NCBI RefSeq assembly: GCF_055900595.2
Contig: NZ_CM148325.1
Direction: 5' to 3' (one strand)
Length of the DNA: 64,000 bases
Of the stretch, positions 3,635-50,597 are shown piece by piece. A program made the position numbers and the translations under genes. Below the pieces are notes generated by a model. It was not told the origin of the DNA. It made no database searches and saw only the letters and a program-made list of their open reading frames with translations. Within the stretch, counting starts at the first letter, position 1; each line of letters opens with the position of its first letter.

Positions 3635-4027
3635 ATGAAAAAATTCGCAGCAGTAATCGCAGTAATGGCCCTGTGCAGTGCACCGGTGATGGCAGCAGAG
3701 CAGGGCGGTTTTTCTGGTCCATCGGCAACACAAAGTCAGGCCGGAGGATTCCAGGGGCCGAATGGCAGCGTAACGACCGTAGAAAGCGCAAAATCCCTGC
3801 GTGATGACACTTGGGTCACCCTGCGCGGCAATATCGTTGAACGTATCTCTGACGATCTCTACGTGTTCAAAGATGCCAGCGGTACTATCAATGTTGATAT
3901 CGACCACAAACGCTGGAACGGCGTGACGGTGACCCCGAAAGATACCGTTGAGATTCAGGGTGAAGTCGATAAAGACTGGAACTCTGTTGAAATTGACGTC
4001 AAACAGATCCGCAAAGTAAATCCGTAA
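3635..4027 (+). CDS. ygiW: Periplasmic OB-fold (BOF) stress protein YgiW/VisP
   Basis: ATG at 3635 with upstream AGGGAG; signal peptide MKKFAAVIAVMALCSAPVMA; 130 aa. Confidence 0.85.
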   Translation: MKKFAAVIAVMALCSAPVMAAEQGGFSGPSATQSQAGGFQGPNGSVTTVESAKSLRDDTWVTLRGNIVERISDDLYVFKDASGTINVDIDHKRWNGVTVTPKDTVEIQGEVDKDWNSVEIDVKQIRKVNP

Positions 4028-4079
4028 TTGTTAGCGCTCCCGGGACACGTTCCCGGGAATAATTTCGCAGGGAGGCAAA

Positions 4080-4562
4080 ATGAAAAACCTGACACTGGAT
4101 GTAAATATTATCGATTTCCCATCAATCCCTGTGGCGATGTTGCCACATCGCTGTAGCCCTGAATTGCTCAACTACAGCGTGGCGAAATTTATCATGTGGC
4201 GTAAAGAAACGGGGCTTTCTCCTGTTAACCAAAGCCAGACTTTTGGTGTCGCCTGGGATGACCCTGCCACCACCGTACCGGAAGCGTTTCGCTTTGATAT
4301 CTGCGGCAGCGTTAACGAACCGATTCCCGATAATCGTTATGGCGTGAGTAATGGTGAACTTACCGGTGGACGTTATGCCGTGGCCCGCCACGTTGGCGAG
4401 CTGGACGATATTTCACATACGGTATGGGGCATCATTCGCCACTGGCTGCCTGCAAGCGGCGAGAAAATGCGTAAAGCACCGATTCTGTTTCACTACACCA
4501 ATCTTGCCGAAGGGGTAACAGAGCAGCGACTGGAAACGGATGTTTATGTGCCGTTGGCGTGA
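4080..4562 (+). CDS. ygiV: GyrI-like small-molecule-binding protein YgiV
   Basis: 160-aa ORF in the expected position next to ygiW; GyrI-like effector-binding fold by sequence character. Confidence 0.8.
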   Translation: MKNLTLDVNIIDFPSIPVAMLPHRCSPELLNYSVAKFIMWRKETGLSPVNQSQTFGVAWDDPATTVPEAFRFDICGSVNEPIPDNRYGVSNGELTGGRYAVARHVGELDDISHTVWGIIRHWLPASGEKMRKAPILFHYTNLAEGVTEQRLETDVYVPLA

Positions 4563-4899
4563 TGAAGAATCTTTACCGGAGTGTGAGTCAAATCACTCGC
4601 TATCAGTTTAAGTTAACGATGCCACAGGCGTAATGTTGTCCGCTCAGACTCTGACGGCACAGGATTTTGTCCTTCCACACAGAAACCGCCATTGGCGGTT
4701 TTCCGCTGCATAATCCTCAGGATTATGTCTATAGCAAAGAGTTGTATATAAAGGCACATTGGTGCCTTTATCGCCGTCGGAGCACGTCCGGCGGCGCTAT
4801 TCACGCTGATCTCCTGTGACTCGACGCGGCAGATAATGTAGTATCTCCGGCAATATTGCCCCTTTGAAGGCTGGCGAATAAGTTGAGGAATCAGAATTA

Positions 4900-7158
4900 A
4901 TGAGCGATATGGCAGAGCGCCTTGCGCTACATGAATTTACGGAAAACGCCTACTTAAATTACTCCATGTACGTAATCATGGACCGTGCGTTGCCGTTTAT
5001 TGGTGATGGTCTGAAACCTGTTCAGCGCCGCATTGTGTATGCGATGTCTGAACTGGGACTAAATGCCAGCGCCAAATTTAAAAAATCGGCCCGTACCGTC
5101 GGTGACGTACTGGGTAAATACCATCCGCACGGTGATAGCGCCTGTTATGAAGCGATGGTCCTGATGGCACAGCCGTTCTCTTACCGTTATCCGCTGGTTG
5201 ATGGTCAGGGGAACTGGGGCGCGCCGGACGATCCGAAATCGTTCGCAGCAATGCGTTACACCGAATCCCGGTTGTCGAAATATTCCGAGCTGCTATTGAG
5301 CGAGCTGGGGCAGGGGACGGCTGACTGGGTGCCAAACTTCGACGGCACTTTGCAGGAGCCGAAAATGCTGCCTGCCCGTCTGCCAAACATTTTGCTTAAC
5401 GGCACCACCGGTATTGCCGTCGGTATGGCGACCGATATTCCACCGCATAACCTGCGTGAAGTGGCTCAGGCAGCAATCGCATTAATCGACCAGCCGAAAA
5501 CCACGCTCGACCAGCTGCTGGATATCGTGCAGGGGCCGGATTATCCGACTGAAGCGGAAATCATCACTTCGCGCGCCGAGATCCGTAAAATTTACGAGAA
5601 CGGACGTGGTTCAGTGCGTATGCGCGCGGTGTGGAAGAAAGAAGATGGCGCGGTGGTTATCAGCGCATTGCCGCATCAGGTTTCAGGTGCGCGTGTACTG
5701 GAGCAAATTGCTGCGCAAATGCGCAACAAAAAGCTGCCGATGGTTGACGATCTGCGCGATGAATCTGACCACGAGAATCCGACCCGTCTGGTGATTGTGC
5801 CGCGTTCCAACCGTGTGGATATGGATCAGGTGATGAACCACCTCTTCGCAACCACCGATCTGGAAAAGAGCTATCGTATTAACCTCAATATGATCGGTCT
5901 GGATGGGCGTCCGGCGGTGAAAAACCTGCTGGAAATCCTTTCCGAATGGCTGGTGTTCCGCCGTGATACCGTGCGCCGCCGTCTGAACTATCGTCTGGAG
6001 AAAGTCCTCAAGCGCCTGCATATTCTGGAAGGTTTGCTGGTGGCGTTTCTCAATATCGACGAAGTGATTGAGATCATTCGCAATGAAGATGAACCGAAAC
6101 CGGCGCTGATGTCGCGCTTTGGCCTCACGGAAACTCAGGCGGAAGCGATCCTCGAACTGAAACTGCGTCATCTCGCCAAACTGGAAGAGATGAAGATTCG
6201 CGGTGAGCAGAGTGAGCTGGAAAAAGAGCGCGACCAGTTGCAAGGCATTCTGGCGTCCGAGCGTAAAATGAATAACCTGCTGAAGAAAGAACTGCAGGCA
6301 GACGCGCAAGCCTATGGTGACGATCGTCGTTCGCCGTTGCAGGAACGCGAAGAAGCGAAAGCGATGAGCGAGCACGACATGTTGCCGTCTGAACCTGTCA
6401 CCATTGTGCTGTCGCAGATGGGCTGGGTACGCAGCGCTAAAGGCCATGACATCGACGCGCCGGGCCTGAATTATAAAGCGGGTGATAGTTTCAAAGCAGC
6501 GGTGAAAGGTAAGAGCAACCAACCGGTAGTGTTTGTTGACTCCACCGGTCGTAGCTATGCTATCGACCCGATTACGCTGCCGTCGGCACGTGGTCAGGGC
6601 GAGCCGCTCACCGGCAAATTGACGTTGCCGCCTGGGGCGACCGTTGACCATATGCTGATGGAAAGCGACGATCAGAAACTGTTGATGGCTTCCGATGCGG
6701 GTTACGGTTTCGTCTGCACCTTTAACGATCTGGTGGCGCGTAACCGTGCAGGTAAGGCCTTAATCACTTTACCGGAAAATGCCCATGTTATGCCGCCTGT
6801 GGTGATTGAGGACGCTTCTGATATGCTGCTGGCAATCACTCAGGCAGGCCGTATGTTGATGTTCCCGGTAAGCGATCTGCCGCAGCTGTCGAAGGGCAAA
6901 GGCAACAAGATTATCAACATTCCATCGGCAGAAGCCGCGCGTGGAGAAGATGGTCTGGCGCAACTGTACGTTCTGCCGCCGCAAAGCACGCTGACCATTC
7001 ATGTTGGGAAACGCAAAATTAAACTGCGTCCGGAAGAGCTACAGAAAGTCACTGGCGAACGTGGACGCCGCGGTACGTTGATGCGCGGTTTGCAGCGTAT
7101 CGATCGTGTCGAGATCGACTCTCCTCGCCGCGCCAGCAGCGGCGATAGCGAAGAGTAG
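4900..7158 (+). CDS. parC: DNA topoisomerase IV subunit A
   Basis: 752-aa ORF with GyrA/ParC N-terminal breakage-reunion domain (active-site region [10 protein letters not shown]) and C-terminal beta-pinwheel. Confidence 0.97.
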
Positions 7159-23800: not shown

Positions 23801-25129
23801 CTGAGAGATCCCCTCATAATTTCCCCAAAACGTAACCATGTGTGAATAGATTTTGAGTAAGCAGGGTTGCAGCCACGAGTGAGTCTTCCCTTGTTATTGT
23901 GTAGCCAGAATGCCGCAAAACTTCCATGCCTAAGCGAACTGTTGAGAGTACGTTTCGATTTCTGACTGTGTTAGCCTGGAAGTGCTTGTCCCAACCTTGT
24001 TTCTGAGCATGAACGCCCGCAAGCCAACATGTTAGTTGAAGCATCAGGGCGATTAGCAGCATGATATCAAAACGCTCTGAGCTGCTCGTTCGGCTATGGC
24101 GTAGGCCTAGTCCGTAGGCAGGACTTTTCAAGTCTCGGAAGGTTTCTTCAATCTGCATTCGCTTCGAATAGATATTAACAAGTTGTTTGGGTGTTCGAAT
24201 TTCAACAGGTAAGTTAGTTGCTAGAATCCATGGCTCCTTTGCCGACGCTGAGTAGATTTTAGGTGACGGGTGGTGACAATGAGTCCGTGTCGAGCGCTGA
24301 TTTTTTCGGCCTTTAGAGCGAGATTTATACAATAGAATTTGGCATGAGATTGGATTGCTTTTAGTCAGCCTCTTATAGCCTAAAGTCTTTGAGTGACTAG
24401 ATGACATATCATGTAAGTTGCTGATAGGTTTCCAGTTTTCCGCTCCTAGGTCTGCATATTGTACTTTTCCTCTTACTCGACTTAACCAGTACCAACCCAG
24501 CTTCTCAACGGATTTATACCATGGCACTTTAAAGCCAGCATCACTGACAATGAGCGGTGTGGTGTTACTCGGTAGAATGCTCGCAAGGTCGGCTAGAAAT
24601 TGGTCATGAGCTTTCTTTGAACATTGCTCTGAAAGCGGGAACGCTTTCTCATAAAGAGTAACAGAACGACCGTGTAGTGCGACTGAAGCTCGCAATACCA
24701 TAAGCCGTTTTTGCTCACGGATATCAGACCAGTCAACAAGTACAATGGGCATCGTATTGCCCGAACAGATAAAGCTAGCATGCCAACGGTATACAGCGAG
24801 TCGCTCTTTGTGGAGGTGACGATTACCTAACAATCGGTCGATTCGTTTGATGTTATGTTTTGTTCTCGCTTTGGTTGGCAGGTTACGGCCAAGTTCGGTA
24901 AGAGTGAGAGTTTTACAGTCAAGTAAGGCGTGGCAAGCCAACGTTAAGCTGTTGAGTCGTTTTAAGTGTAATTCGGGGCAGAATTGGTAAAGAGAGTCGT
25001 GTAAAATATCGAGTTCGCACATTTTGTTGTCTGATTATTGATTTTTGGCGAAACCATTTGATCATATGACAAGATGTGTATCCACCTTAACTTAATGATT
25101 TTTACCAAAATCATTAGGGGATTCATCAG
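23801..25129 (-). mobile_element. IS10 (IS4 family), complete 1329-bp copy
   Basis: Ends CTGAGAGATCCCCTCATAATTTCCCC (inside end, 23801) and CTGATGAATCCCCTAATGATTTTGG (outside end, reverse at 25129); contains the 402-aa transposase; 9-bp direct repeats flank it. Confidence 0.95.
23814..25022 (-). CDS. IS10 transposase
   Basis: 402-aa ORF MCELDILHDSLYQFCPELHLKRLNSLTLACHALLDCKTLTLTELGRNLPTK... recognised as IS10/Tn10 transposase. Confidence 0.95.
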   Translation of the reverse strand: MCELDILHDSLYQFCPELHLKRLNSLTLACHALLDCKTLTLTELGRNLPTKARTKHNIKRIDRLLGNRHLHKERLAVYRWHASFICSGNTMPIVLVDWSDIREQKRLMVLRASVALHGRSVTLYEKAFPLSEQCSKKAHDQFLADLASILPSNTTPLIVSDAGFKVPWYKSVEKLGWYWLSRVRGKVQYADLGAENWKPISNLHDMSSSHSKTLGYKRLTKSNPISCQILLYKSRSKGRKNQRSTRTHCHHPSPKIYSASAKEPWILATNLPVEIRTPKQLVNIYSKRMQIEETFRDLKSPAYGLGLRHSRTSSSERFDIMLLIALMLQLTCWLAGVHAQKQGWDKHFQANTVRNRNVLSTVRLGMEVLRHSGYTITREDSLVAATLLTQNLFTHGYVLGKL

Positions 25130-40042: not shown

Positions 40043-41392
40043 TTGGCGGGTTTTAACATCAAACATTGGTTTGCAGATGGCGCGTTTCGCACCATTATTC
40101 GCAATAGCGCCTGGTTAGGCTCCAGTAATGTCGTGAGCGCTTTGCTGGGTCTGTTGGCGCTCTCGTGTGCCGGTAAAGGGATGACGCCCGCCATGTTTGG
40201 CGTACTGGTGATTGTGCAATCGTACGCCAAGTCGATCAGCGATTTTATTAAGTTTCAGACATGGCAGTTGGTGGTGCAGTACGGAACGCCAGCCTTGACC
40301 AACAATAATCCGCAGCAATTTCGCAATGTCGTCTCATTTTCCTTCTCGTTGGATATCGTCAGCGGCGCGGTGGCGATTGTCGGCGGCATTGCCTTACTCC
40401 CTTTTCTTTCCCATTCATTAGGTCTGGATGACCAAAGCTTTTGGCTGGCAGCGCTGTATTGCACGCTCATTCCTTCAATGGCTTCCTCCACGCCGACCGG
40501 CATTCTGCGTGCGGTAGATAGCTTCGACTTAATTGCTGTACAGCAGGCGACGAAACCTTTTCTGCGCGCAGCGGGGAGCGTCGTTGCCTGGTATTTTGAC
40601 TTTGGTTTTGCGGGTTTTGTTATTGCCTGGTACGCCTCGAATCTTGTTGGCGGCACCATGTACTGGTGGTTTGCCGCACGTGAATTACGCCGCAGAAATA
40701 TCCATAACGCGTTCAAATTGAATCTGTTTGAGTCTGCCCGACACATCAAAGGCGCGTGGAGTTTTGTCTGGTCAACCAACATTGCCCATTCCATCTGGTC
40801 GGCGCGTAATTCGTGCAGCACAGTGTTGGTGGGGATCGTGTTAGGACCCGCTGCCGCCGGGTTATTTAAAATCGCCATGACATTCTTCGACGCCGCCGGA
40901 ACGCCAGCGGGTTTACTAGGTAAAAGTTTTTACCCAGAGGTGATGCGTTTAGATCCGCGCACCACCAGACCGTGGTTGTTAGGCGTGAAGTCCGGTTTAC
41001 TGGCGGGCGGAATCGGTATTCTGGTGGCGCTCGCGGTGTTGATCGTCGGCAAGCCGCTCATTTCGCTGGTGTTTGGCGTTAAGTATCTCGAAGCGTATGA
41101 CCTGATTCAGGTGATGCTGGGCGCAATTGTGATTTCGATGCTGGGCTTCCCACAGGAGTCATTGCTATTGATGGCGGGAAAACAGCGTGCTTTTCTCGTG
41201 GCGCAAACCATCGCCTCAATCGGCTACATCGTATTGCTGTTCATGTTCTGTCATCTGTTTGGCGTGCTGGGGGCTGCATTTGCTTACTTCGCTGGGCAAT
41301 GTCTGGATGTGGTGCTCTCGCTAATTCCAACCTTAAAGGCATTTTTTCAGCGCCATTCCTTGCTTTATAACGCAGCCGGAGAGAAATCCTGA
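40043..41392 (+). CDS. yghQ: Polytopic membrane protein YghQ (MOP/Wzx-like flippase family), full length here
   Basis: 449-aa ORF with about 12 predicted TM helices; TTG start as given by the ORF track (true start uncertain); stop overlaps the next ORF (TGATG). Confidence 0.75.
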   Translation: MAGFNIKHWFADGAFRTIIRNSAWLGSSNVVSALLGLLALSCAGKGMTPAMFGVLVIVQSYAKSISDFIKFQTWQLVVQYGTPALTNNNPQQFRNVVSFSFSLDIVSGAVAIVGGIALLPFLSHSLGLDDQSFWLAALYCTLIPSMASSTPTGILRAVDSFDLIAVQQATKPFLRAAGSVVAWYFDFGFAGFVIAWYASNLVGGTMYWWFAARELRRRNIHNAFKLNLFESARHIKGAWSFVWSTNIAHSIWSARNSCSTVLVGIVLGPAAAGLFKIAMTFFDAAGTPAGLLGKSFYPEVMRLDPRTTRPWLLGVKSGLLAGGIGILVALAVLIVGKPLISLVFGVKYLEAYDLIQVMLGAIVISMLGFPQESLLLMAGKQRAFLVAQTIASIGYIVLLFMFCHLFGVLGAAFAYFAGQCLDVVLSLIPTLKAFFQRHSLLYNAAGEKS

Positions 41393-42228
41393 TGATGAGA
41401 AAATATTTCCCGCTTGAGGCTAGCGAGCGTCTATTTGTTGCGATTGAAGAAGATGATGTCGTTGATGCACAGGTCAGTTTGCCGCCGACTATCGCACTAA
41501 GTTGTACCACCGAAATCATCCATGATAATTACGCGTTATGCCTGAAATTCTGGCTGGATGGTGTTAATCGTCAGGAGCTACTGCGTTTAATCCGCAAACA
41601 GGCGAAAGGCGATGAGCTGACGACAGACGAGCGCAAAAAGTATAAATACATGCGAGCGCGCTACAAGCATCTGCGCTTTGCGCAACGGCTGTATTTAAAG
41701 AAGCATCAGGCCGGATTTTTATTCGGCAAAACGACCGTTTTTTTGGGGCGTTTTCAGGACGGCTTTCGTAACGGTAAGAAAAATATTGTGTCGTATTACG
41801 GCAACCTGTTACGGGTTTATTTAAGCTCTCCGGTCTGGTCGTTGGTGAACTATTCATTACGCCATAGCCAGTTAGAAAGCGTAAGCGGTTTTATTGCCTA
41901 TCGGCAAAAGCAAATGCATACCCTGAAAGAGATAATTGCCAAACCGCGACTAACTGGCAGGGAATTTCATGATGTGCGAAAAATCATCAGCCAGCAGGTT
42001 TCTTATTACGACACCCTAAGATCGCTTGATCCTGAAAATAAAGAGGCGTTACAGATTTCCCGCTTCCTCGCCGCCATTAATGGCCTGATGGGGGATAAAC
42101 ACGACGACATGGTGGCGGATGATATGGAAAACCGCCAGTCGTATGATGCACCGATGGCGCTGGATAGCGATATTCGTCAGCGCTTAGAACTGCTGATTTC
42201 GCGTTTCCCACTCTATCCGGAGCAATAA
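41392..42228 (+). CDS. Hypothetical soluble protein (278 aa), coupled to yghQ
   Basis: Start overlaps the yghQ stop; stop overlaps the next start (TAATG); no motif recognised by eye. Confidence 0.6.
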   Translation: MMRKYFPLEASERLFVAIEEDDVVDAQVSLPPTIALSCTTEIIHDNYALCLKFWLDGVNRQELLRLIRKQAKGDELTTDERKKYKYMRARYKHLRFAQRLYLKKHQAGFLFGKTTVFLGRFQDGFRNGKKNIVSYYGNLLRVYLSSPVWSLVNYSLRHSQLESVSGFIAYRQKQMHTLKEIIAKPRLTGREFHDVRKIISQQVSYYDTLRSLDPENKEALQISRFLAAINGLMGDKHDDMVADDMENRQSYDAPMALDSDIRQRLELLISRFPLYPEQ

Positions 42229-42788
42229 TGCCATCTCGTTGGATTTTCGCTCTGATCATCGCACTCTTAGCGCCAGGCGCGGTGGCACACAATTTCGTCA
42301 CTGGTAAAACGGTTACCCCTGTTTATATCCAGGAAGGCGGTGAGTTGCTTCTGAATAGCGACGACGAAATTCACTACCAAAAGTGGAACAGCACACAGCT
42401 GGCGGGAAAAGTCCGCATTATTCAGTATATCGCCGGGCGTAAGTCGGCGAAGAAAAAGAACTCACTGTTAATTAAAGCGGTTGAAGCGGCAAACTTTCCG
42501 CAGGATCGTTTTCAGCCCACCACCATTGTGAACACCGATGATGCCATCTTTGGTACCGACTATTTTGTCGTTGGCAAAATCGAAAAAAATAAACGCCGCT
42601 ATCCATGGGCGCAATTCGTTATTGACGGCAATGGACAGGGACGTGTTGCCTGGCGCTTGCCGGAGCAGAGTTCAACCATTCTGGTGCTGAATAAAAACGG
42701 GCAAATTCAGTGGGCAAAGGACGGCAGCCTGACGCCGGAAGAGGTAGATCATGTCATTGCGCTGGCGCAGAAGCTGATCAATGAATAA
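42228..42788 (+). CDS. Secreted/periplasmic protein (186 aa), possibly YtfJ-like
   Basis: Cleavable signal peptide MPSRWIFALIIALLAPGAVAHN; translationally coupled to the upstream ORF. Confidence 0.6.
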   Translation: MPSRWIFALIIALLAPGAVAHNFVTGKTVTPVYIQEGGELLLNSDDEIHYQKWNSTQLAGKVRIIQYIAGRKSAKKKNSLLIKAVEAANFPQDRFQPTTIVNTDDAIFGTDYFVVGKIEKNKRRYPWAQFVIDGNGQGRVAWRLPEQSSTILVLNKNGQIQWAKDGSLTPEEVDHVIALAQKLINE

Positions 42789-42818
42789 AAAACTCAAAGG
42801 ATTGAGGGCGTTAGTGAG

Positions 42819-43889
42819 ATGAAGCTGGTTGAACACTACATCATGCGTGGTACGCGCCGTCTGGTGCTGATTATCGTCGGTTTTCTGATCTTTATTTTCG
42901 CCAGCTACTCCGCACAGCGTTATCTGACCGAAGCGGCAAATGGGACATTAGCTCTTGATGTTGTGCTGGATATCGTTTTCTACAAAGTGCTGATTGCACT
43001 GGAGATGCTGTTACCTGTTGGACTATATGCTTCAGTTGGCGTGACGCTAGGGCAAATGTATACCGACTCGGAAATTACCGCTATCTCCGCGGCGGGGGGC
43101 AGTCCGGGACGCTTGTACAAAGCCGTTCTTTATCTGGCGATACCGCTAAGTATTTTTGTCACCCTTCTGTCGATGTATGGTCGTCCGTGGGCTTATGCGC
43201 AGATTTATCAACTGGAGCAACAGTCACAGTCGGAGCTGGATGTTCGCCAGTTGCGGGCAAAGAAATTTAACACTAACGATAACGGACGAATGATCCTTTC
43301 GCAGACGGTTGATCAGGATAATAATCGCCTGACTGACGCGCTGATTTATACTTCTACTGCCAATCGAACCCGCATTTTCCGCGCCCGTTCGGTTGATGTG
43401 GTTGACCCATCACCTGAGAAACCGACCGTTATGTTGCATAACGGGACCGCCTATCTTCTCGATCATCAGGGGCGTGACGACAACGAACAGATCTACCGTA
43501 ATCTGCAATTACATCTGAATCCGCTGGATCAAAGCCCTAACGTCAAACGCAAAGCAAAATCGGTCACGGAGCTGGCGCGCTCCGCCTTTCCTGCCGATCA
43601 TGCCGAACTGCAATGGCGACAAAGCCGTGGCCTGACAGCATTGTTGATGGCGCTGCTGGCCATTTCATTAAGTCGGGTAAAACCGCGGCAAGGGCGATTT
43701 TCAACGTTATTGCCACTGACGTTGCTGTTTATTGCCATTTTTTATGGCGGCGACGTCTGCCGTACGCTGGTGGCTAACGGCGCGATTCCCCTCATTCCTG
43801 GTTTGTGGTTAGTACCCGGACTCATGCTAATGGGCCTGCTGATGCTGGTCGCACGCGACTTCTCTTTGCTGCAGAAATTTTCCCGATGA
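42819..43889 (+). CDS. LptF/LptG-family (YjgP/YjgQ) permease paralogue, first of a pair
   Basis: 356-aa ORF with N-terminal MKLVEHYIMRGTRRLVLIIVGFLIFIF resembling LptF/LptG; predicted TM helices flanking a periplasmic domain. Confidence 0.7.
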   Translation: MKLVEHYIMRGTRRLVLIIVGFLIFIFASYSAQRYLTEAANGTLALDVVLDIVFYKVLIALEMLLPVGLYASVGVTLGQMYTDSEITAISAAGGSPGRLYKAVLYLAIPLSIFVTLLSMYGRPWAYAQIYQLEQQSQSELDVRQLRAKKFNTNDNGRMILSQTVDQDNNRLTDALIYTSTANRTRIFRARSVDVVDPSPEKPTVMLHNGTAYLLDHQGRDDNEQIYRNLQLHLNPLDQSPNVKRKAKSVTELARSAFPADHAELQWRQSRGLTALLMALLAISLSRVKPRQGRFSTLLPLTLLFIAIFYGGDVCRTLVANGAIPLIPGLWLVPGLMLMGLLMLVARDFSLLQKFSR

Positions 43890-44965
43890 ATGTTTTCAGC
43901 CGCTATTTAATCCGTCATCTCTTTCTCGGTTTTGCCGCCGCCGCAGGGCTATTGCTGCCGCTTTTTACCACCTTCAACCTGATTAACGAACTGGATGATG
44001 TCGGCCCGGGCGGTTATCGCTGGACCCAGGCGGTGCTGGTGGTGCTGATGACCTTACCGCGCACACTGGTCGAACTTTCGCCGTTTATCGCCTTATTGGG
44101 AGGGATTGTCGGCCTGGGGCAACTATCGAAAAACAGTGAGCTTACCGCCATTCGCAGCACGGGGTTTTCTATCTTCCGTATTGCACTGGTGGCGCTGGTT
44201 GCCGGGATATTGTGGACTGTTTCGTTAGGCGCGATAGATGAGTGGGTGGCGTCGCCATTGCAGCAACAGGCGCTGCAAATCAAATCGACTGCCACCGCGT
44301 TGGGGGAGGACGATGACATTACCGGCAATATGCTTTGGGCCAGGCGCGGTAATGAATTTGTGACGGTGAAATCGCTGAACGAGCAGGGCCAGCCTGTGGG
44401 CGTGGAGATATTTCATTATCGCGACGATCTCTCGCTCGAATCCTACATTTTTGCACGCAGTGCCTCCATTGAAGACGACAAAACATGGATCCTGCATGGT
44501 GTGAATCATAAAAAATGGTTGAATGGCAAAGAAACGCTGGAAACATCAGATAATCTTACCTGGCAATCGGCCTTCACCAGTATGAATCTTGAAGAGTTAT
44601 CGATGCCGGGAAATACTTTTTCTGTCCGTCAACTTAATCATTACATCCATTATTTGCAGGAAACTGGGCAACCCAGCAGCGAATACCGCCTTGCACTGTG
44701 GGAAAAACTGGGACAACCCATCCTGACCCTGGCGATGATTTTGCTGGCTGTGCCGTTTACCTTTAGTGCCCCGCGTTCGCCTGGGATGGGTAGCCGTCTC
44801 GCTGTAGGCGTCATCGTGGGCTTACTTACCTGGATCAGCTATCAAATCATGGTCAATCTGGGATTGCTATTTGCGTTGAGCGCACCTGTTACCGCGCTCG
44901 GTTTACCGGTAGCGTTTGTGCTGGTGGCGTTGAGCCTGGTGTATTGGTATGACAGACAACATTAA
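43886..44965 (+). CDS. LptF/LptG-family (YjgP/YjgQ) permease paralogue, second of a pair
   Basis: ATG at 43886 overlaps the upstream stop (ATGA); MNVFSRYLIRHLFLGFAAAAGLLLPLFT... typical LptG-like N-terminus; 359 aa. Confidence 0.7.
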   Translation: MNVFSRYLIRHLFLGFAAAAGLLLPLFTTFNLINELDDVGPGGYRWTQAVLVVLMTLPRTLVELSPFIALLGGIVGLGQLSKNSELTAIRSTGFSIFRIALVALVAGILWTVSLGAIDEWVASPLQQQALQIKSTATALGEDDDITGNMLWARRGNEFVTVKSLNEQGQPVGVEIFHYRDDLSLESYIFARSASIEDDKTWILHGVNHKKWLNGKETLETSDNLTWQSAFTSMNLEELSMPGNTFSVRQLNHYIHYLQETGQPSSEYRLALWEKLGQPILTLAMILLAVPFTFSAPRSPGMGSRLAVGVIVGLLTWISYQIMVNLGLLFALSAPVTALGLPVAFVLVALSLVYWYDRQH

Positions 44966-44999
44966 ACCCGCCGTGGCGCAACACCACAGCGGGCTCACA

Positions 45000-46172
45000 T
45001 TACTGCTTCAGAGTAGCGAACGCTTGAATGATGGCATCAATTTGCTCACGACTGTGGGCAGCGTTTACGCTACAGCGCAGCAGCGTGATGCCTGCAGGCG
45101 CGGCAGGTGGCAGGATAAGATTCACATAAACGCCCAGCGAAATAAGCTCGCGCCAGATGCGTAAACCTTCCTCTTTCGAACCGATTATTACTGGCACTAC
45201 CGGGCTAATATGTGAACTTAACTCATAATCCAGTTTTTGCAGACCGTCATACAGATGGTTGGCATTATCCATCAGCTTTTGCCGCAACTCTGGTTGTGAG
45301 GCAATGGTTCTTAACGACGAGCGCACGGTCGCAATGCAGGACGGAGAAGGAGAGGCGGTAAAAATATACGGGCGGCTGCCGTAGCGCAACACTTCCATCG
45401 CTTCCGAACCGACAGCAAAACCGCCAATCGAGGCCAGACTTTTACTGAAGGTACCAACGATAATATCCACATCATCTTCAACGCCAACGGCTTCAGCCAG
45501 TCCGCGCCCCGTTGCGCCTAACACGCCAAACGAATGCGCTTCATCGACAATCAAATAACCACCGAGACGACGTTTGATATCAACAATTTCCGCCAGCGGC
45601 GCAACGTCACCGAGCATACTGTAGATGCCTTCAACGATGATAATCGCCTCTTTTGCCCGTTCACCGAGGCGAACCATGCGCCGTTCCAGATCTTTAGCAT
45701 CGTTATGGCGGAAACGAATAATTTCCGCGCCACCGAGAGAACAGGCGTCATAAATACTGGCGTGGCTGTCGGCATCCAGTAACACCACGGCGTTATGGTC
45801 GGCAAGTGCGCTGATGACGCCTAAATTAGCGGTATAACCGGTTGAAAAAACGATAGCGGTAGGGCGATTAAAAAACTCGGCGATCTCTTTCTCTAACGCC
45901 AGATGCGGCGCATAACTGCCGTTTGCCATACGAGAACCGGTGGTGCCGGTGCCTTGGGCCGCTAACGCTGCCTGACCTTCGGCGATGGCATCATGATTAA
46001 AGGTTAAACCGAGATAATTATTGGTCCCGGCCAGAATCACTTTTTTATTGCCGATCCGACCTTCGGTGGCGGAATACACTTCATCAATACAGGTGCCAAA
46101 CGGTGTTAACCCGTTGTCACTAAATTGCAGTCGCTCGCCAGCAAGGCGCGCATATTTATCGTATAGCCCCAT
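45000..46172 (-). CDS. PLP-dependent alpha-oxoamine synthase, serine-palmitoyltransferase-like
   Basis: 390-aa ORF with PLP-lysine motif GTFSKSLASIGG and DEAHSFG motif characteristic of SPT/KBL/BioF enzymes. Confidence 0.8.
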   Translation of the reverse strand: MGLYDKYARLAGERLQFSDNGLTPFGTCIDEVYSATEGRIGNKKVILAGTNNYLGLTFNHDAIAEGQAALAAQGTGTTGSRMANGSYAPHLALEKEIAEFFNRPTAIVFSTGYTANLGVISALADHNAVVLLDADSHASIYDACSLGGAEIIRFRHNDAKDLERRMVRLGERAKEAIIIVEGIYSMLGDVAPLAEIVDIKRRLGGYLIVDEAHSFGVLGATGRGLAEAVGVEDDVDIIVGTFSKSLASIGGFAVGSEAMEVLRYGSRPYIFTASPSPSCIATVRSSLRTIASQPELRQKLMDNANHLYDGLQKLDYELSSHISPVVPVIIGSKEEGLRIWRELISLGVYVNLILPPAAPAGITLLRCSVNAAHSREQIDAIIQAFATLKQ

Positions 46173-46420
46173 TATTTATTCTCCAGCCATGGAAGTAGTG
46201 TTTCCATTAATTGCGCAGGGGTTTTGACATCCAGCAGAATATTAATAGGAATGGAAATATCGAATCTGTCTTCCAGCATCATTAAGAGATCCATCACTTT
46301 GATCGACTCCAGGCCAAGATCGTTGACGAGATCGCTGTCGGGCTTAATTTCCACACCGTTTTCGACCAAATCCTGTAAACAGGAAAGGATGTAATCCATT
46401 ACTATTTCACGATTTACCAT
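46172..46420 (-). CDS. Dedicated acyl carrier protein
   Basis: 82-aa acidic ORF with phosphopantetheine-site motif DLGLESI; stop overlaps the SPT-like gene start. Confidence 0.75.
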   Translation of the reverse strand: MVNREIVMDYILSCLQDLVENGVEIKPDSDLVNDLGLESIKVMDLLMMLEDRFDISIPINILLDVKTPAQLMETLLPWLENK

Positions 46421-46451
46421 AGAAACGTTAACACACCTTTAAACAAGACAA

Positions 46452-47366
46452 TCAAAATAGCCCGTTGCGTAATGCGTGTTCCAGGCTAATCCCGGGAAAC
46501 CAATTAATATCTTCAGAAATACGGTTATTACTTGCTGACCAGTCGGCGTGGGTTAATTCACGGATTTTCGAGCGGGTCAGCATAGGTTCTTTACCTGCCA
46601 GGCGACTCAACGCGGTACTGATATCCGCAAGGCAGGTGAGTACCGACAGAGGAATACCAACCATTCGAACGGAACCGCAACGGGCGTCGGCGGCAAGTTG
46701 CTGTACGCGTTGCCAGTCATAGCCGCCGGCGACGCCATCGCATAATTCATAGGTTTGCGTCTGTACAGTTTCGGCGCTTAACCACTGCCCCACGGCTTGC
46801 GCGAAATCGGTGACGTGCAGGAAAGAGAGCTGTGTATCTGGCGCACCAAGTCGTGGCAGCAGGCCGCGCAGCATCCAGTCAAACAGCGGTTTTAACTCTT
46901 TATCGCCGGGACCATACACGGCTGTCGGGCGAAAAATGCCCAGCGTAATTTCGTCAGCCATTGCGGTCAGTCGTTGTTCGGCGACGTGTTTGGAATTTGC
47001 GTACCAGGAGAGTTCGGGATGACGCGCCGCCAGCGAAGAGATAAACAGAAAACGTTGGCAAAAGCCGCTCTCTTTTGCCGCTTGCATCAGGCGCAGGCTG
47101 CCGTCAACGTTACAGCGGGTAAAAATCTCTTCTTTGTGTCCGCGCACTTGTCCGGCGCAATGGACCACCGCGCTGGCTCCGGCAACCAGTTCGCTAAGCG
47201 AATGTGTATCTTCCAGCGAACCGCGCACCCAGATGAGATTATCATTGACGTGAGCGCGGGCAGTACGCGTCAATGCGCGAACGTGAAAGCCGCGGGCGAG
47301 CAGGTTATCGATAATATATTTACCGATAAACCCGGTAGCGCCCGTCACCGCGACAGTTTGATTCAT
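46452..47366 (-). CDS. NAD(P)-dependent epimerase/dehydratase-family reductase (extended SDR)
   Basis: 304-aa ORF with Rossmann motif VTGATGFIGKYI and YxxxK motif (YANSK); start overlaps the FAAL stop (ATGA). Confidence 0.75.
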   Translation of the reverse strand: MNQTVAVTGATGFIGKYIIDNLLARGFHVRALTRTARAHVNDNLIWVRGSLEDTHSLSELVAGASAVVHCAGQVRGHKEEIFTRCNVDGSLRLMQAAKESGFCQRFLFISSLAARHPELSWYANSKHVAEQRLTAMADEITLGIFRPTAVYGPGDKELKPLFDWMLRGLLPRLGAPDTQLSFLHVTDFAQAVGQWLSAETVQTQTYELCDGVAGGYDWQRVQQLAADARCGSVRMVGIPLSVLTCLADISTALSRLAGKEPMLTRSKIRELTHADWSASNNRISEDINWFPGISLEHALRNGLF

Positions 47367-49084
47367 GCCAGGGATTCCTGCACATGAAGGCTTGCAGCAT
47401 AAGCCTTCTGATAACGTTTTTTCGCTTCCGCACGGGCAGGCTTGCCGGAGGACGTTCGGGGAATACTGTGGGGCGGCAACAGATCGATAGCCGCGGTTAC
47501 GCCAAATTCGCTTTGGATCCGTGCTGCCAGTGCGTGGATAAGCTGCCCACGACGTTCTTCGTCGCTGATCCTACACTGGATCTGCAGAATGATTTTTTCC
47601 TGGGCGGTAACAAAAGCAATCGCATCGCCAGAATGAATTTCCGGTTCCTGTTCCGCAATATATTCAATATCCTGCGGCCAGATATTACGGCCACGAATAA
47701 TAATCAGATCTTTAATGCGTCCGGTGACATACAGATAACCGTCCAGCAGATAACCGAGGTCGCCGGTATCTAACCAGCCCGTCGCGGCAATCTCGTCTTG
47801 CGAAACCTGGTCGCCAAAGTAACCGCTCATCAGGCTGGGGCCGGAGATGCAAATATGGCCTACCACACGTTCCGCGACCGGCATACCTGCTTCATTGCGG
47901 ATTTCAATGCCATGTTCCGGCAACGCTTTACCGCAGTTGACGAAAGTCGATACGGCGCGTGTTTCAGCACCCGGCGCGACGGCTTTGCCCTGATATTCAA
48001 GGATGTCGCGATCCACTTCGTTAACCACAACCCCGGAGGCTTCATCAGAGAAGCTGACAGCCAGCGCATTTTCTGCCAGTCCGTAGCACGGCATGAACGT
48101 TTTATCGTCAAAGTTAACCTGACGGAAACATTCAGCGAATTGATGGAGTTGTTCTGCGGAGATGGGTTCTGCACCAATACCAGCGACGCGCCAGCAGGAA
48201 AGATCCAGTTCAGCGAGATCTTTTTCATTCACGCGGCGCTGGCACAATTCATAGCCAAACGGCGGCGCAACGGAAACGGTGCCGCGATTTTTACTGATCA
48301 ATTTAAGCCATTGCAGAGGACGCATGGCAAAATCCTGAGTGCGCAAATAATCTACTGAAAGCTGCGTGGCGACGGGGGTCAGGAGAAAGCCGACCAGTCC
48401 CATATCATGGTAGAAAGGCAGCCAGGAGACGCAGCGGTCGCCAGGGCGTAATTTAATGCCATCGTGGCTTATAGCACGTAGATTAGCCATCACTTCGCGA
48501 TGGGTGATAATGACGCCACGGGGAAAACGGGTGCTGCCGGAGGTGTACTGGAGGTAGGCGATATCGTTCGGAACTGGATGCTGGAGTGCAACATCGGCTT
48601 CCGGTAATGCCTTAAACCAGGCGTGGCTTAAAACATGTAATTCGGGGTTGTTATGCGTAGCGGCATTGACCAGTGGCAACCACTCATCACCAGTGATAAT
48701 GGCTGCGGGCTGGCAACTTGCCAGTAAACCCTGCAGTTTGGCGCTCCAGGAATCCCGCTGACCGATGCCCATTGGAATCGCCAACGGGACGGCGACTAAG
48801 CCGGCATACTGGCAGGAAAAAAAAGCCTCTACGAACCCGCTACTGGTTTCGGCAATCAGCGCCACGCGATCGCCTTTTTTCAGGTTCAGCGATAACAACC
48901 GCTTCGCACCAGCTTCGGCACGCGCTTTTAACGTCTGATATTCCAGTTGATCTTCAAGTTGGCAACGTCTGTCATAAAAATTCATTCCGGCGCTACTCAG
49001 AGCGGCGTAGTCCAAAGCATCAACCAGCGTTGGAAAATCGGCATAGCGCATAGGTAGGGAATGCGTAAAGATTTTATTAGACAT
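47363..49084 (-). CDS. Fatty acyl-AMP ligase / acyl-ACP synthetase (FAAL-type adenylating enzyme)
   Basis: Start set at ATG 49084 (MSNKIFTHSLPMRYADFPTL...; the ORF track's 49111 start is TTG); AMP-binding motif YTSGSTRFPRGV resembling FadD32-type FAALs. Confidence 0.8.
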   Translation of the reverse strand: MSNKIFTHSLPMRYADFPTLVDALDYAALSSAGMNFYDRRCQLEDQLEYQTLKARAEAGAKRLLSLNLKKGDRVALIAETSSGFVEAFFSCQYAGLVAVPLAIPMGIGQRDSWSAKLQGLLASCQPAAIITGDEWLPLVNAATHNNPELHVLSHAWFKALPEADVALQHPVPNDIAYLQYTSGSTRFPRGVIITHREVMANLRAISHDGIKLRPGDRCVSWLPFYHDMGLVGFLLTPVATQLSVDYLRTQDFAMRPLQWLKLISKNRGTVSVAPPFGYELCQRRVNEKDLAELDLSCWRVAGIGAEPISAEQLHQFAECFRQVNFDDKTFMPCYGLAENALAVSFSDEASGVVVNEVDRDILEYQGKAVAPGAETRAVSTFVNCGKALPEHGIEIRNEAGMPVAERVVGHICISGPSLMSGYFGDQVSQDEIAATGWLDTGDLGYLLDGYLYVTGRIKDLIIIRGRNIWPQDIEYIAEQEPEIHSGDAIAFVTAQEKIILQIQCRISDEERRGQLIHALAARIQSEFGVTAAIDLLPPHSIPRTSSGKPARAEAKKRYQKAYAASLHVQESLA

Positions 49085-49454
49085 ATACACCACGAAAAAA
49101 TTGGATATCAAAAATAAAATGACAATAATGCGGTGGATTATATAGGCATAAAAGATAAATGAGATAGTATTTTCATCAGTGTGAAAATGAACATTGATTT
49201 AAATAATGAGTTTGAGTTTTTTGTTTTTATTGTGAATGATATTTAATTTATGAATGTATTAAGAAGAAGCCTTGTCCGGTCGCCTTAAATCGACAAAAGG
49301 CATTGTGGCGCTTCTGTGTAGTCTCTGACCTTATCGTAATCATTAATAAATGCTATTTATTCGTCGTTTGTATTCATTGGGTTGATTATTAAGGTGCCGT
49401 TCGTTGCTGTTGCAACCTGTTTGTCACCGTTAATTATTTGTTACCCACAGAACT
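49085..49454. promoter_or_regulatory. AT-rich divergent intergenic region (probable promoters for the FAAL operon and yghO)
   Basis: 370 bp of strongly AT-rich sequence with poly-A/T tracts between divergent genes; no individual promoter element is called. Confidence 0.4.
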
Positions 49455-50597
49455 ATGGAATGCGATCTGCTGATGATTAAAATTGAAAAAGTAATTAATA
49501 AAAATGACCTTAAGGCATTTATCGCTTTTCCGTCATCACTTTATCCCGACGATCCAAACTGGATACCCCCTTTATTCATTGAACGCAACGAGCATTTGTC
49601 TGCGAAAAATCCGGGGACGGACCATATCATCTGGCAGGCGTGGGTGGCAAAAAAAGCCGGGCAGATAGTTGGGCGAATTACCGCGCAAATCGATACCTTG
49701 CACCGTGAGCGTTACGGTGAAGATACCGGTCATTTCGGCATGATTGACGCCATTGATGATCCGCAGGTTTTTGCCGCGTTGTTTGGCGCAGCGGAAGCGT
49801 GGTTGAAGTCACAAGGTGCAAGTAAGATCAGCGGTCCTTTCAGCCTGAATATCAATCAGGAAAGCGGATTACTGATTGAAGGTTTCGATACACCACCCTG
49901 TGCGATGATGCCGCACGGTAAACCGTGGTATGCCGCGCATATTGAACAATTGGGTTATCACAAAGGCATTGATTTACTAGCGTGGTGGATGCAGCGAACC
50001 GATCTCACTTTCTCTCCGGCGCTAAAAAAACTGATGGATCAGGTGCGTAAGAAGGTGACCATTCGCTGCATCAATCGCCAGCGGTTTGCCGAAGAGATGC
50101 AGATCCTGCGTGAGATTTTCAACTCTGGCTGGCAGCACAACTGGGGATTTGTGCCGTTTACCGAACATGAATTCGCGACTATGGGCGATCAACTTAAATA
50201 TCTGGTGCCGGACGATATGATCTACATCGCTGAGATTGATTCTGCACCCTGCGCGTTTATTGTTGGCTTGCCAAACATCAACGAGGCGATTGCCGATCTG
50301 AACGGATCGCTCTTTCCCTTCGGCTGGGCAAAATTGCTGTGGCGTTTAAAAGTCAGCGGTGTGCGAACTGCGCGAGTACCGCTGATGGGCGTGCGGGACG
50401 AGTATCAGTTTAGCCGCATCGGCCCGGTGATTGCGCTGTTATTGATTGAAGCCTTACGCGATCCGTTTGCCCGCCGGAAGATCGATGCGCTGGAAATGTC
50501 ATGGATCCTCGAAACCAATACAGGCATGAATAACATGCTGGAACGCATTGGGGCAGAGCCGTACAAGCGTTACCGATTGTATGAAAAGCAGATTTGA
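49455..50597 (+). CDS. yghO: YghO, acyl-CoA N-acyltransferase-like protein, apparently full length
   Basis: 380-aa ORF (alternative start at ATG 49473); recognised as the full-length counterpart of the K-12 yghO remnant. Confidence 0.7.
   Translation: MECDLLMIKIEKVINKNDLKAFIAFPSSLYPDDPNWIPPLFIERNEHLSAKNPGTDHIIWQAWVAKKAGQIVGRITAQIDTLHRERYGEDTGHFGMIDAIDDPQVFAALFGAAEAWLKSQGASKISGPFSLNINQESGLLIEGFDTPPCAMMPHGKPWYAAHIEQLGYHKGIDLLAWWMQRTDLTFSPALKKLMDQVRKKVTIRCINRQRFAEEMQILREIFNSGWQHNWGFVPFTEHEFATMGDQLKYLVPDDMIYIAEIDSAPCAFIVGLPNINEAIADLNGSLFPFGWAKLLWRLKVSGVRTARVPLMGVRDEYQFSRIGPVIALLLIEALRDPFARRKIDALEMSWILETNTGMNNMLERIGAEPYKRYRLYEKQI

Follow-up and report, generated by a model that had tools for sequence, protein, structure and literature searches.

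The junction between ygiV and parC raises the question of how this site comes to lack three genes that stand side by side in Escherichia coli K-12. In the stretch analysed here (64,000 nucleotides of contig NZ_CM148325.1 from assembly GCF_055900595.2, hereafter the window) ygiV is followed by parC after 337 bp (4563–4899). A sequence-only reading of the window had drawn attention to this gap and had placed mqsR, mqsA and ygiS between the two genes in K-12, from which it concluded that the accessory content differs at this point. The coordinates and the flanking genes hold, the K-12 order it gave is right (in MG1655 the junction reads ygiV - 204 bp - mqsR - mqsA - 132 bp - ygiS - 137 bp - parC), and the window does lack mqsR, mqsA and an intact ygiS. 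The alignment with K-12 and other E. coli genomes for which that reading had called reveals a real difference in gene content. It had also allowed that mqsRA-ygiS might prove to be located elsewhere in reference genomes; mqsRA stands straight after ygiV in 2,289 of the 2,294 E. coli genomes carrying it, and the K-12 arrangement is real.

We consider that the 337-bp spacer is very probably a scar left by gene decay, at a locus for which several states are known, and not a functional novelty. This answer draws on four things that the analysis establishes: the anatomy of the junction, the direction in which it changed, the frequency of its states in the population and the lineage of the window. 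The two absences evidently have different histories: mqsRA would never have been inserted at this site, while ygiS would have been present and later deleted, leaving remnants. The features concerned are listed in Table 1.

Table 1. Features of the ygiV-parC junction (positions are those of the window).
Feature	Position	Strand	Description
ygiV (GyrI-like regulator), intact	4080–4562	+	160-aa ORF; Pfam GyrI-like, E 2e-36; 97% DNA identity to K-12 ygiV
Empty mqsRA site	4565–4570		AAGAAT where K-12 has the ~926-bp mqsR-mqsA module; alignment of the window and loci L002, L004 and L005 with K-12
ygiV-ygiS spacer / ygiS leader remnant	4571–4639	+	Ends 32 nt before the expected ygiS ATG; Shine-Dalgarno sequence and start codon gone
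Internal ygiS fragment	4640–4673	+	ygiS nt 314–347, peptide ..LTAQDFVL; blastn 33 nt at 91%, colinear; global alignment 30/34
Junction filler between the two ygiS fragments	4674–4682		4674–4680 without identifiable source
ygiS 3' remnant	4683–4762	+	Last ~80 nt, residues 510–535; blastn 97%; tblastn E 1e-14
Perfect 19-nt palindrome	4683–4701		AAACCGCCA-T-TGGCGGTTT, then T; 9-nt arms; second deletion junction
Palindrome in ygiS coding remnant (HNPQDY)	4709–4727		CATAATCCT-C-AGGATTATG; perfect 9-nt arms
Palindrome	4748–4771		ATAAAGGCAC-ATTG-GTGCCTTTAT; arms 4748–4757 and 4762–4771, 10 nt, 100% complementary; 4-nt loop
ygiS-parC intergenic region (presumed parC promoter and 5' UTR), intact	4763–4899	+	Alignment of 10 taxa including E. 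albertii
GC-rich hairpin	4772–4796		CGCCGTCGGA-GCACG-TCCGGCGGCG; directly after ygiS; kept across the genus; fold and alignment
Palindrome	4849–4860		GGCAATATTGCC; within the parC upstream region
parC (topoisomerase IV subunit A), intact	4900–7158	+	752-aa ORF; Pfam DNA_topoisoIV; annotated in the identical genome NZ_CP098223

Upstream of ygiV, which is annotated also in NZ_CP098223, lie ygiW, qseBC, ygiZ and mdaB, and downstream of parC lie plsC and ftsP; the order is that of K-12 on the opposite strand. The possibility that the junction sits in a locally divergent or recombinant patch was rejected, the whole 64 kb being 95.6–97.9% identical to K-12. It had been stated that the spacer holds no convincing ORF, and this is correct: the sole ORF (63 aa, minus strand, 4613–4804) was rejected as a gene, being antisense to scraps of ygiS and having no Pfam match. 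A search of the spacer for remnants, which had likewise been recommended, gave a divided result, with clear remnants of ygiS and none of mqsRA.

Nothing of the toxin-antitoxin pair was recovered from the window. When the whole 64 kb was searched by tblastn with the K-12 proteins, MqsR produced only a chance-level match (E 0.63) at 49.6 kb and MqsA no match, nor was there an antitoxin gene following a toxin gene. The MqsA operator palindromes (ACCT..AGGT), which in K-12 are found inside the ~926-bp module, are also missing from the window. The two spacer bases 4563–4564 are common to all E. coli after the ygiV stop codon, and it is here, 2 nt beyond that codon, that the match to K-12 ends in all mqsRA-free E. 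coli. Most other mqsRA-free Escherichia, including CFT073 and O55:H7, have GGGAAT at the empty site. Compared with the mqsRA (ygiU-ygiT) type II locus of K-12, the window thus occupies the same chromosomal site and presents the exact insertion point unoccupied; lacking toxin gene, antitoxin gene and operator palindromes, it is an empty allele and not a member of the family.

The pair is a later insertion in E. coli, and the site in the window is ancestral and was never filled, because the outgroups E. albertii and E. whittamii possess ygiV-ygiS-parC without mqsRA. The module has a G+C content of 41% against 52–55% in its neighbours, and identity is 99% or higher for every copy in the 2,294–2,298 carriers among 5,426 E. 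coli genomes. The module ends (L003, ~4821 and ~5747) showed neither direct nor inverted repeats of the sort expected from an integrase or a transposase, and the insertion replaced 6 bp and did not duplicate them. The low G+C content, the lack of flanking repeats and the near-identity of the copies would fit one recent insertion. In a section of PMC5120126 that cites Ramisetty and Santhosh (2016), chromosomal toxin-antitoxin modules of E. coli are described as horizontally transferred.

The history of ygiS is a different one. A tblastn search of the whole window with YgiS returned only the C-terminal 26 residues (4682–4759), while a search of the spacer alone (4541–4910) added a weak second match (residues 99–116, E 0.031) over the internal fragment. 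The leader stretch is recognizable as well. Counted from 4570, which still belongs to the empty site as its final base, to 4639, it matches the K-12 mqsA-ygiS spacer at 88.6% identity; a global alignment with O55:H7 gives 74 identities in 85 positions, and in the comparison with K-12, CFT073 and O55:H7 the identity of 4571–4639 is 88–90%. Bases 4681–4693 are an exact 13-mer of ygiS nt 896–908. Alignments place the former ygiS stop codon, TGA, at 4760–4762, where the window reads TGG, and in NZ_CP098223 PGAP marks 4691–4759 as a partial pseudogene. Missing are ygiS nt 1–313 and 348 to ~1528, or ~93% of the coding sequence. Three colinear blocks stand at the syntenic position with the start codon, most codons and the stop codon lost. 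Since what is left of ygiS lies in three or more separate colinear pieces, the spacer would record at least two deletions inside the gene, next to an unfilled mqsRA site. Intact ygiS specifies a periplasmic substrate-binding protein linked to deoxycholate import and is a variable gene of the pan-genome; the window retains its leader, an internal piece and the 3' end in colinear order, and differs from it in having no ribosome-binding site, start codon or stop codon.

Two peculiarities of the leader deserve mention. Within 20 nt of the dead leader (4601–4620) the window carries six substitutions relative to all other Escherichia and to the clade I strain MFDS1022581. This cluster may stem from recombination over a short patch or from one mutation that changed several bases; no second copy that could have served as donor was found anywhere in the window. 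The intact leader of O55:H7 (the ygiV-ygiS spacer, L004 1865–1972) folds with a z-score of -4.2, CTTTACCGGAG pairing with CTCCGGTAAGG, a stretch that contains the Shine-Dalgarno sequence of ygiS. The left arm of this fold corresponds to 4571–4581 of the window, and its start coincides with the point of mqsRA insertion; the window has lost the right arm.

The states of the junction were counted in 5,426 complete E. coli genomes, a gene being scored as present if at least 80% of the mqsRA pair, or at least 80% of ygiS, was found. On this basis mqsRA is present in 2,294–2,298 genomes (42%) and ygiS in 4,053; ygiV and parC lie close together with neither gene between them in 1,369 (~25%). The short junctions comprise 1,354 genomes with a scar of 545 bp and 13 (0.24%) with the 337-bp scar of the window. 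The resulting shares (~42% K-12-like, ~32% ygiV-ygiS-parC, ~25% 545-bp scar and 0.24% window scar) were obtained by subtraction of these totals. CFT073 and O55:H7 have ygiV-108 bp-ygiS-parC and no mqsRA. The 545-bp scar retains ygiS nt 1–22 and 1567–1608 around a 236-bp filler. This filler (L002 3614–3849; found in the 1,354 genomes, including O104:H4) has 60% GC, replaces ygiS and is absent from the window; its only other relatives are stretches of unannotated DNA beside the 3' end of plasmid-borne bcsC, to which nt 108–233 are ~84% identical. Because it begins with GTGCG it was considered as the end of a group II intron, for which a scan of the whole of L002 gave no Rfam support.

For the outgroups, one genome per species was searched with YgiV and the K-12 genes were mapped onto the loci returned. 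Intact ygiV-ygiS-parC without mqsRA is present in E. albertii, in E. whittamii and in SCPM-O-B-8794, a divergent 'E. coli'. MOD1-EC7003 and E1V33, which represent other Escherichia lineages, also have no mqsRA and contain wrecks of ygiS with break points unlike those of the window and unlike each other's (L006 5554–5925 and L008 3716–4143; both keep the last ~250 nt of ygiS). We take ygiV-ygiS-parC to be the ancestral Escherichia order because the first three genomes have it and none of the outgroups has mqsRA. The loss of ygiS is derived and happened at least four separate times, giving the clade I scar, the 545-bp scar and the wrecks of the two further lineages. In a pan-genome study mqsR, mqsA and ygiS are among the variable genes (PMC11390585). 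The scar in the window is consistent with these published data and is an already known kind of presence/absence polymorphism, seen in public annotated genomes.

Eight genomes match the first 23.8 kb of the window at 100% identity. Of the five remaining carriers of the 337-bp scar, four are among the matches listed (2017-02-2CC is not) and reach 98.6–98.9%, and other E. coli reach only about 96.5%. Strains 100117, E200086, E400634, E500002 and E600003 are given as 'Cryptic' or 'Cryptic I' (four as Cryptic I), ST485, OND:H45 in Table 1 of PMC13064198. The window belongs to Escherichia cryptic clade I, because these five are among the eight identical genomes; they are the five of the 13 carriers for which clade typing is published. 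The rarity of the 337-bp scar in the database follows from the rarity of cryptic clade I there. In an alignment of five carriers the deletion architecture was the same in all five, and the deletions therefore predate their divergence.

The spacer is rich in inverted repeats. The sequence-only reading had noted a palindrome with an 8-bp stem at about 4751–4770; it is real, and longer than was claimed, with a perfect 10-bp stem. By our own estimate the chance of such a stem in 337 bp is ~0.002. This palindrome spans the former ygiS stop codon. Its ancestral form, ATCAAGGCAC-ATTG-ATGCCTTTAT, occurs in every other Escherichia examined, and since the TGA in it is the ygiS stop codon the structure is a hairpin which normally overlaps the end of ygiS. 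Two substitutions, C>A at 4750 and A>G at 4762, made both mismatched positions pair and at the same time removed the stop codon. They are confined to the lineage of the window and strain N96, being absent from three other clade I strains and from all other Escherichia examined, and they double the predicted stability of the RNA hairpin (-13.1 kcal/mol versus -6.6 for the ancestral form).

The 4683–4701 palindrome is invariant and present in all five clade I carriers examined; its RNA hairpin is predicted at -12.5 kcal/mol versus -5.1 for the ancestral form, AAACCTACGTTGGCGGTTT. The left arm can be read in two ways, either as ygiS nt 1529–1537 (ancestral AAACCTACGTTGGCGGTTT) with three clustered substitutions, or as the exact 13-mer of nt 896–908 joined to nt ~1540 through a TT microhomology. 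The 4709–4727 palindrome is ancestral and is present too where ygiS is intact. Together the segment 4676–4810 folds into five tandem hairpins with a minimum free energy of -58.7 kcal/mol (z -6.5), the ancestral values being -49.9 and -4.3. Further downstream, the 137 bp of 4763–4899 are nearly invariant from E. coli to E. albertii, against an identity of only ~90% for the parC coding sequence, which points to strong constraint on a promoter, leader or binding site. A consensus promoter scan of 4400–5000 found none.

Stable stem-loops in the intergenic region downstream of a gene call to mind rho-independent terminators and REP sequences. A REP/BIME element was rejected, since such elements occur in many copies per genome and the spacer, across 5,425 genomes, has a median of one match in each. 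A scan for the terminator consensus (a GC-rich stem followed by at least five T in eight) found no site in 4400–5000, the hairpin tails being TTTTCC, CGCCGT and CTATTC, and Rfam had no match to 4000–5200 of the window at E values up to 1. Template-switch mutation (Ripley-type templated mutation) perfects quasi-palindromes without any selection. The clustered or paired substitutions that perfect the inverted repeats at 4683–4701 and 4748–4771 resemble such correction, with the difference that the deletion itself may have put one of these palindromes together. We infer that the palindromes were perfected by template-switch mutation or by weak selection.

Could the window have arisen more simply, from a K-12-like ancestor that lost the whole mqsR-mqsA-ygiS block in a single clean deletion? 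The K-12 arrangement is found in 42% of genomes and the window is without all three genes, as such an event would leave it. It is nevertheless highly improbable. The ygiS leader, which lies downstream of mqsA in K-12, directly follows ygiV in the window and is joined to it through the same 6-bp empty site as in the genomes with ygiS and without mqsRA. A clean deletion does not leave ygiS in three or more colinear pieces, no outgroup carries mqsRA, and the near-identity of its copies fits a recent acquisition. That the junction is an assembly or sequencing artefact, namely a collapsed region, has next to no credibility. Apart from the shortness of the spacer nothing speaks for it, and the same 337-bp junction recurs with 97.3–100% identity in 13 independently assembled complete genomes. 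These come from dog, pig, cattle, food and humans, and from South Korea, China, Thailand, Viet Nam and the African and South Asian sites of the GEMS study; where they differ from one another, the pattern follows lineage.

A functional alternative concerns what the spacer retains: the hairpin array at 4683–4796 would be a terminator or insulator which, once ygiS was lost, shields the parC promoter from ygiV transcription, its stems having been perfected by selection. The fold of five tandem hairpins, more stable than its ancestral counterpart, is in its favour, as are the substitutions specific to the window in the ygiS 3' remnant, all of which raise complementarity. The sequence at 4683–4701, with an A-tract, a GC stem and TTTT, resembles a bidirectional terminator; in each of the four independent ygiS wrecks the final 42–255 nt of the gene survive together with the downstream hairpins; and the parC upstream region hardly varies within the genus. 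Even so we regard this explanation as unlikely. The terminator scan came up empty, none of the hairpins has a real U-tract behind it, Rfam offers no match, and three of the five clade I carriers do well with an imperfect stem. The palindrome at 4683–4701 may simply have come about with the deletion junction, and template switching perfects quasi-palindromes without selection.

The decay of ygiS at a site which mqsRA never entered probably proceeded as follows. The mqsR-mqsA module would have inserted once, in a subset of E. coli including K-12. In the ancestry of the window one deletion would have taken the ygiS ribosome-binding site, the start codon and the first ~104 codons, and another most of the remaining gene, with the parC upstream region and the hairpin-rich 3' end of ygiS retained. 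In the sub-lineage of the window two substitutions, harmless once ygiS was dead, would then have perfected the stop-codon hairpin and abolished the stop. The deletions were presumably illegitimate events of the microhomology type, and the retained hairpins may terminate or insulate transcription coming from ygiV. A bolder proposal, that loss of this bile-salt-import-associated binding protein has been repeatedly selected in the gut and that the hairpin array, here strengthened, has been kept as an insulator for the promoter of the essential parC, strikes us as unlikely.

The junction provides a clean worked example of two routes by which a gene comes to be absent from one locus, having never been gained or having been lost. 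It also indicates that possession of mqsRA, as in K-12, is a minority and derived state, which bears on the disputed claims that MqsRA has core physiological roles and is connected with ygiS and bile tolerance (PMC6918082). As a sequence marker the 337-bp scar is handy for recognizing the clade I carriers described here. Small leads for the specialist are that ygiS was lost repeatedly and independently, that substitutions perfected palindromes, and that the region upstream of parC is nearly invariant.

Elsewhere in the window, a 402-aa DDE transposase of an insertion sequence is encoded on the minus strand at 23814–25022, where the match to K-12 and to the eight otherwise identical clade I genomes stops. 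An 8.4-kb block at 41111–49495 is absent from K-12, whose yghQ and yghO are separated there by IS5; the block has genes for a YtfJ-like protein, two LptF/LptG-like permeases, an aminotransferase, an NAD-dependent epimerase and an AMP-binding enzyme.
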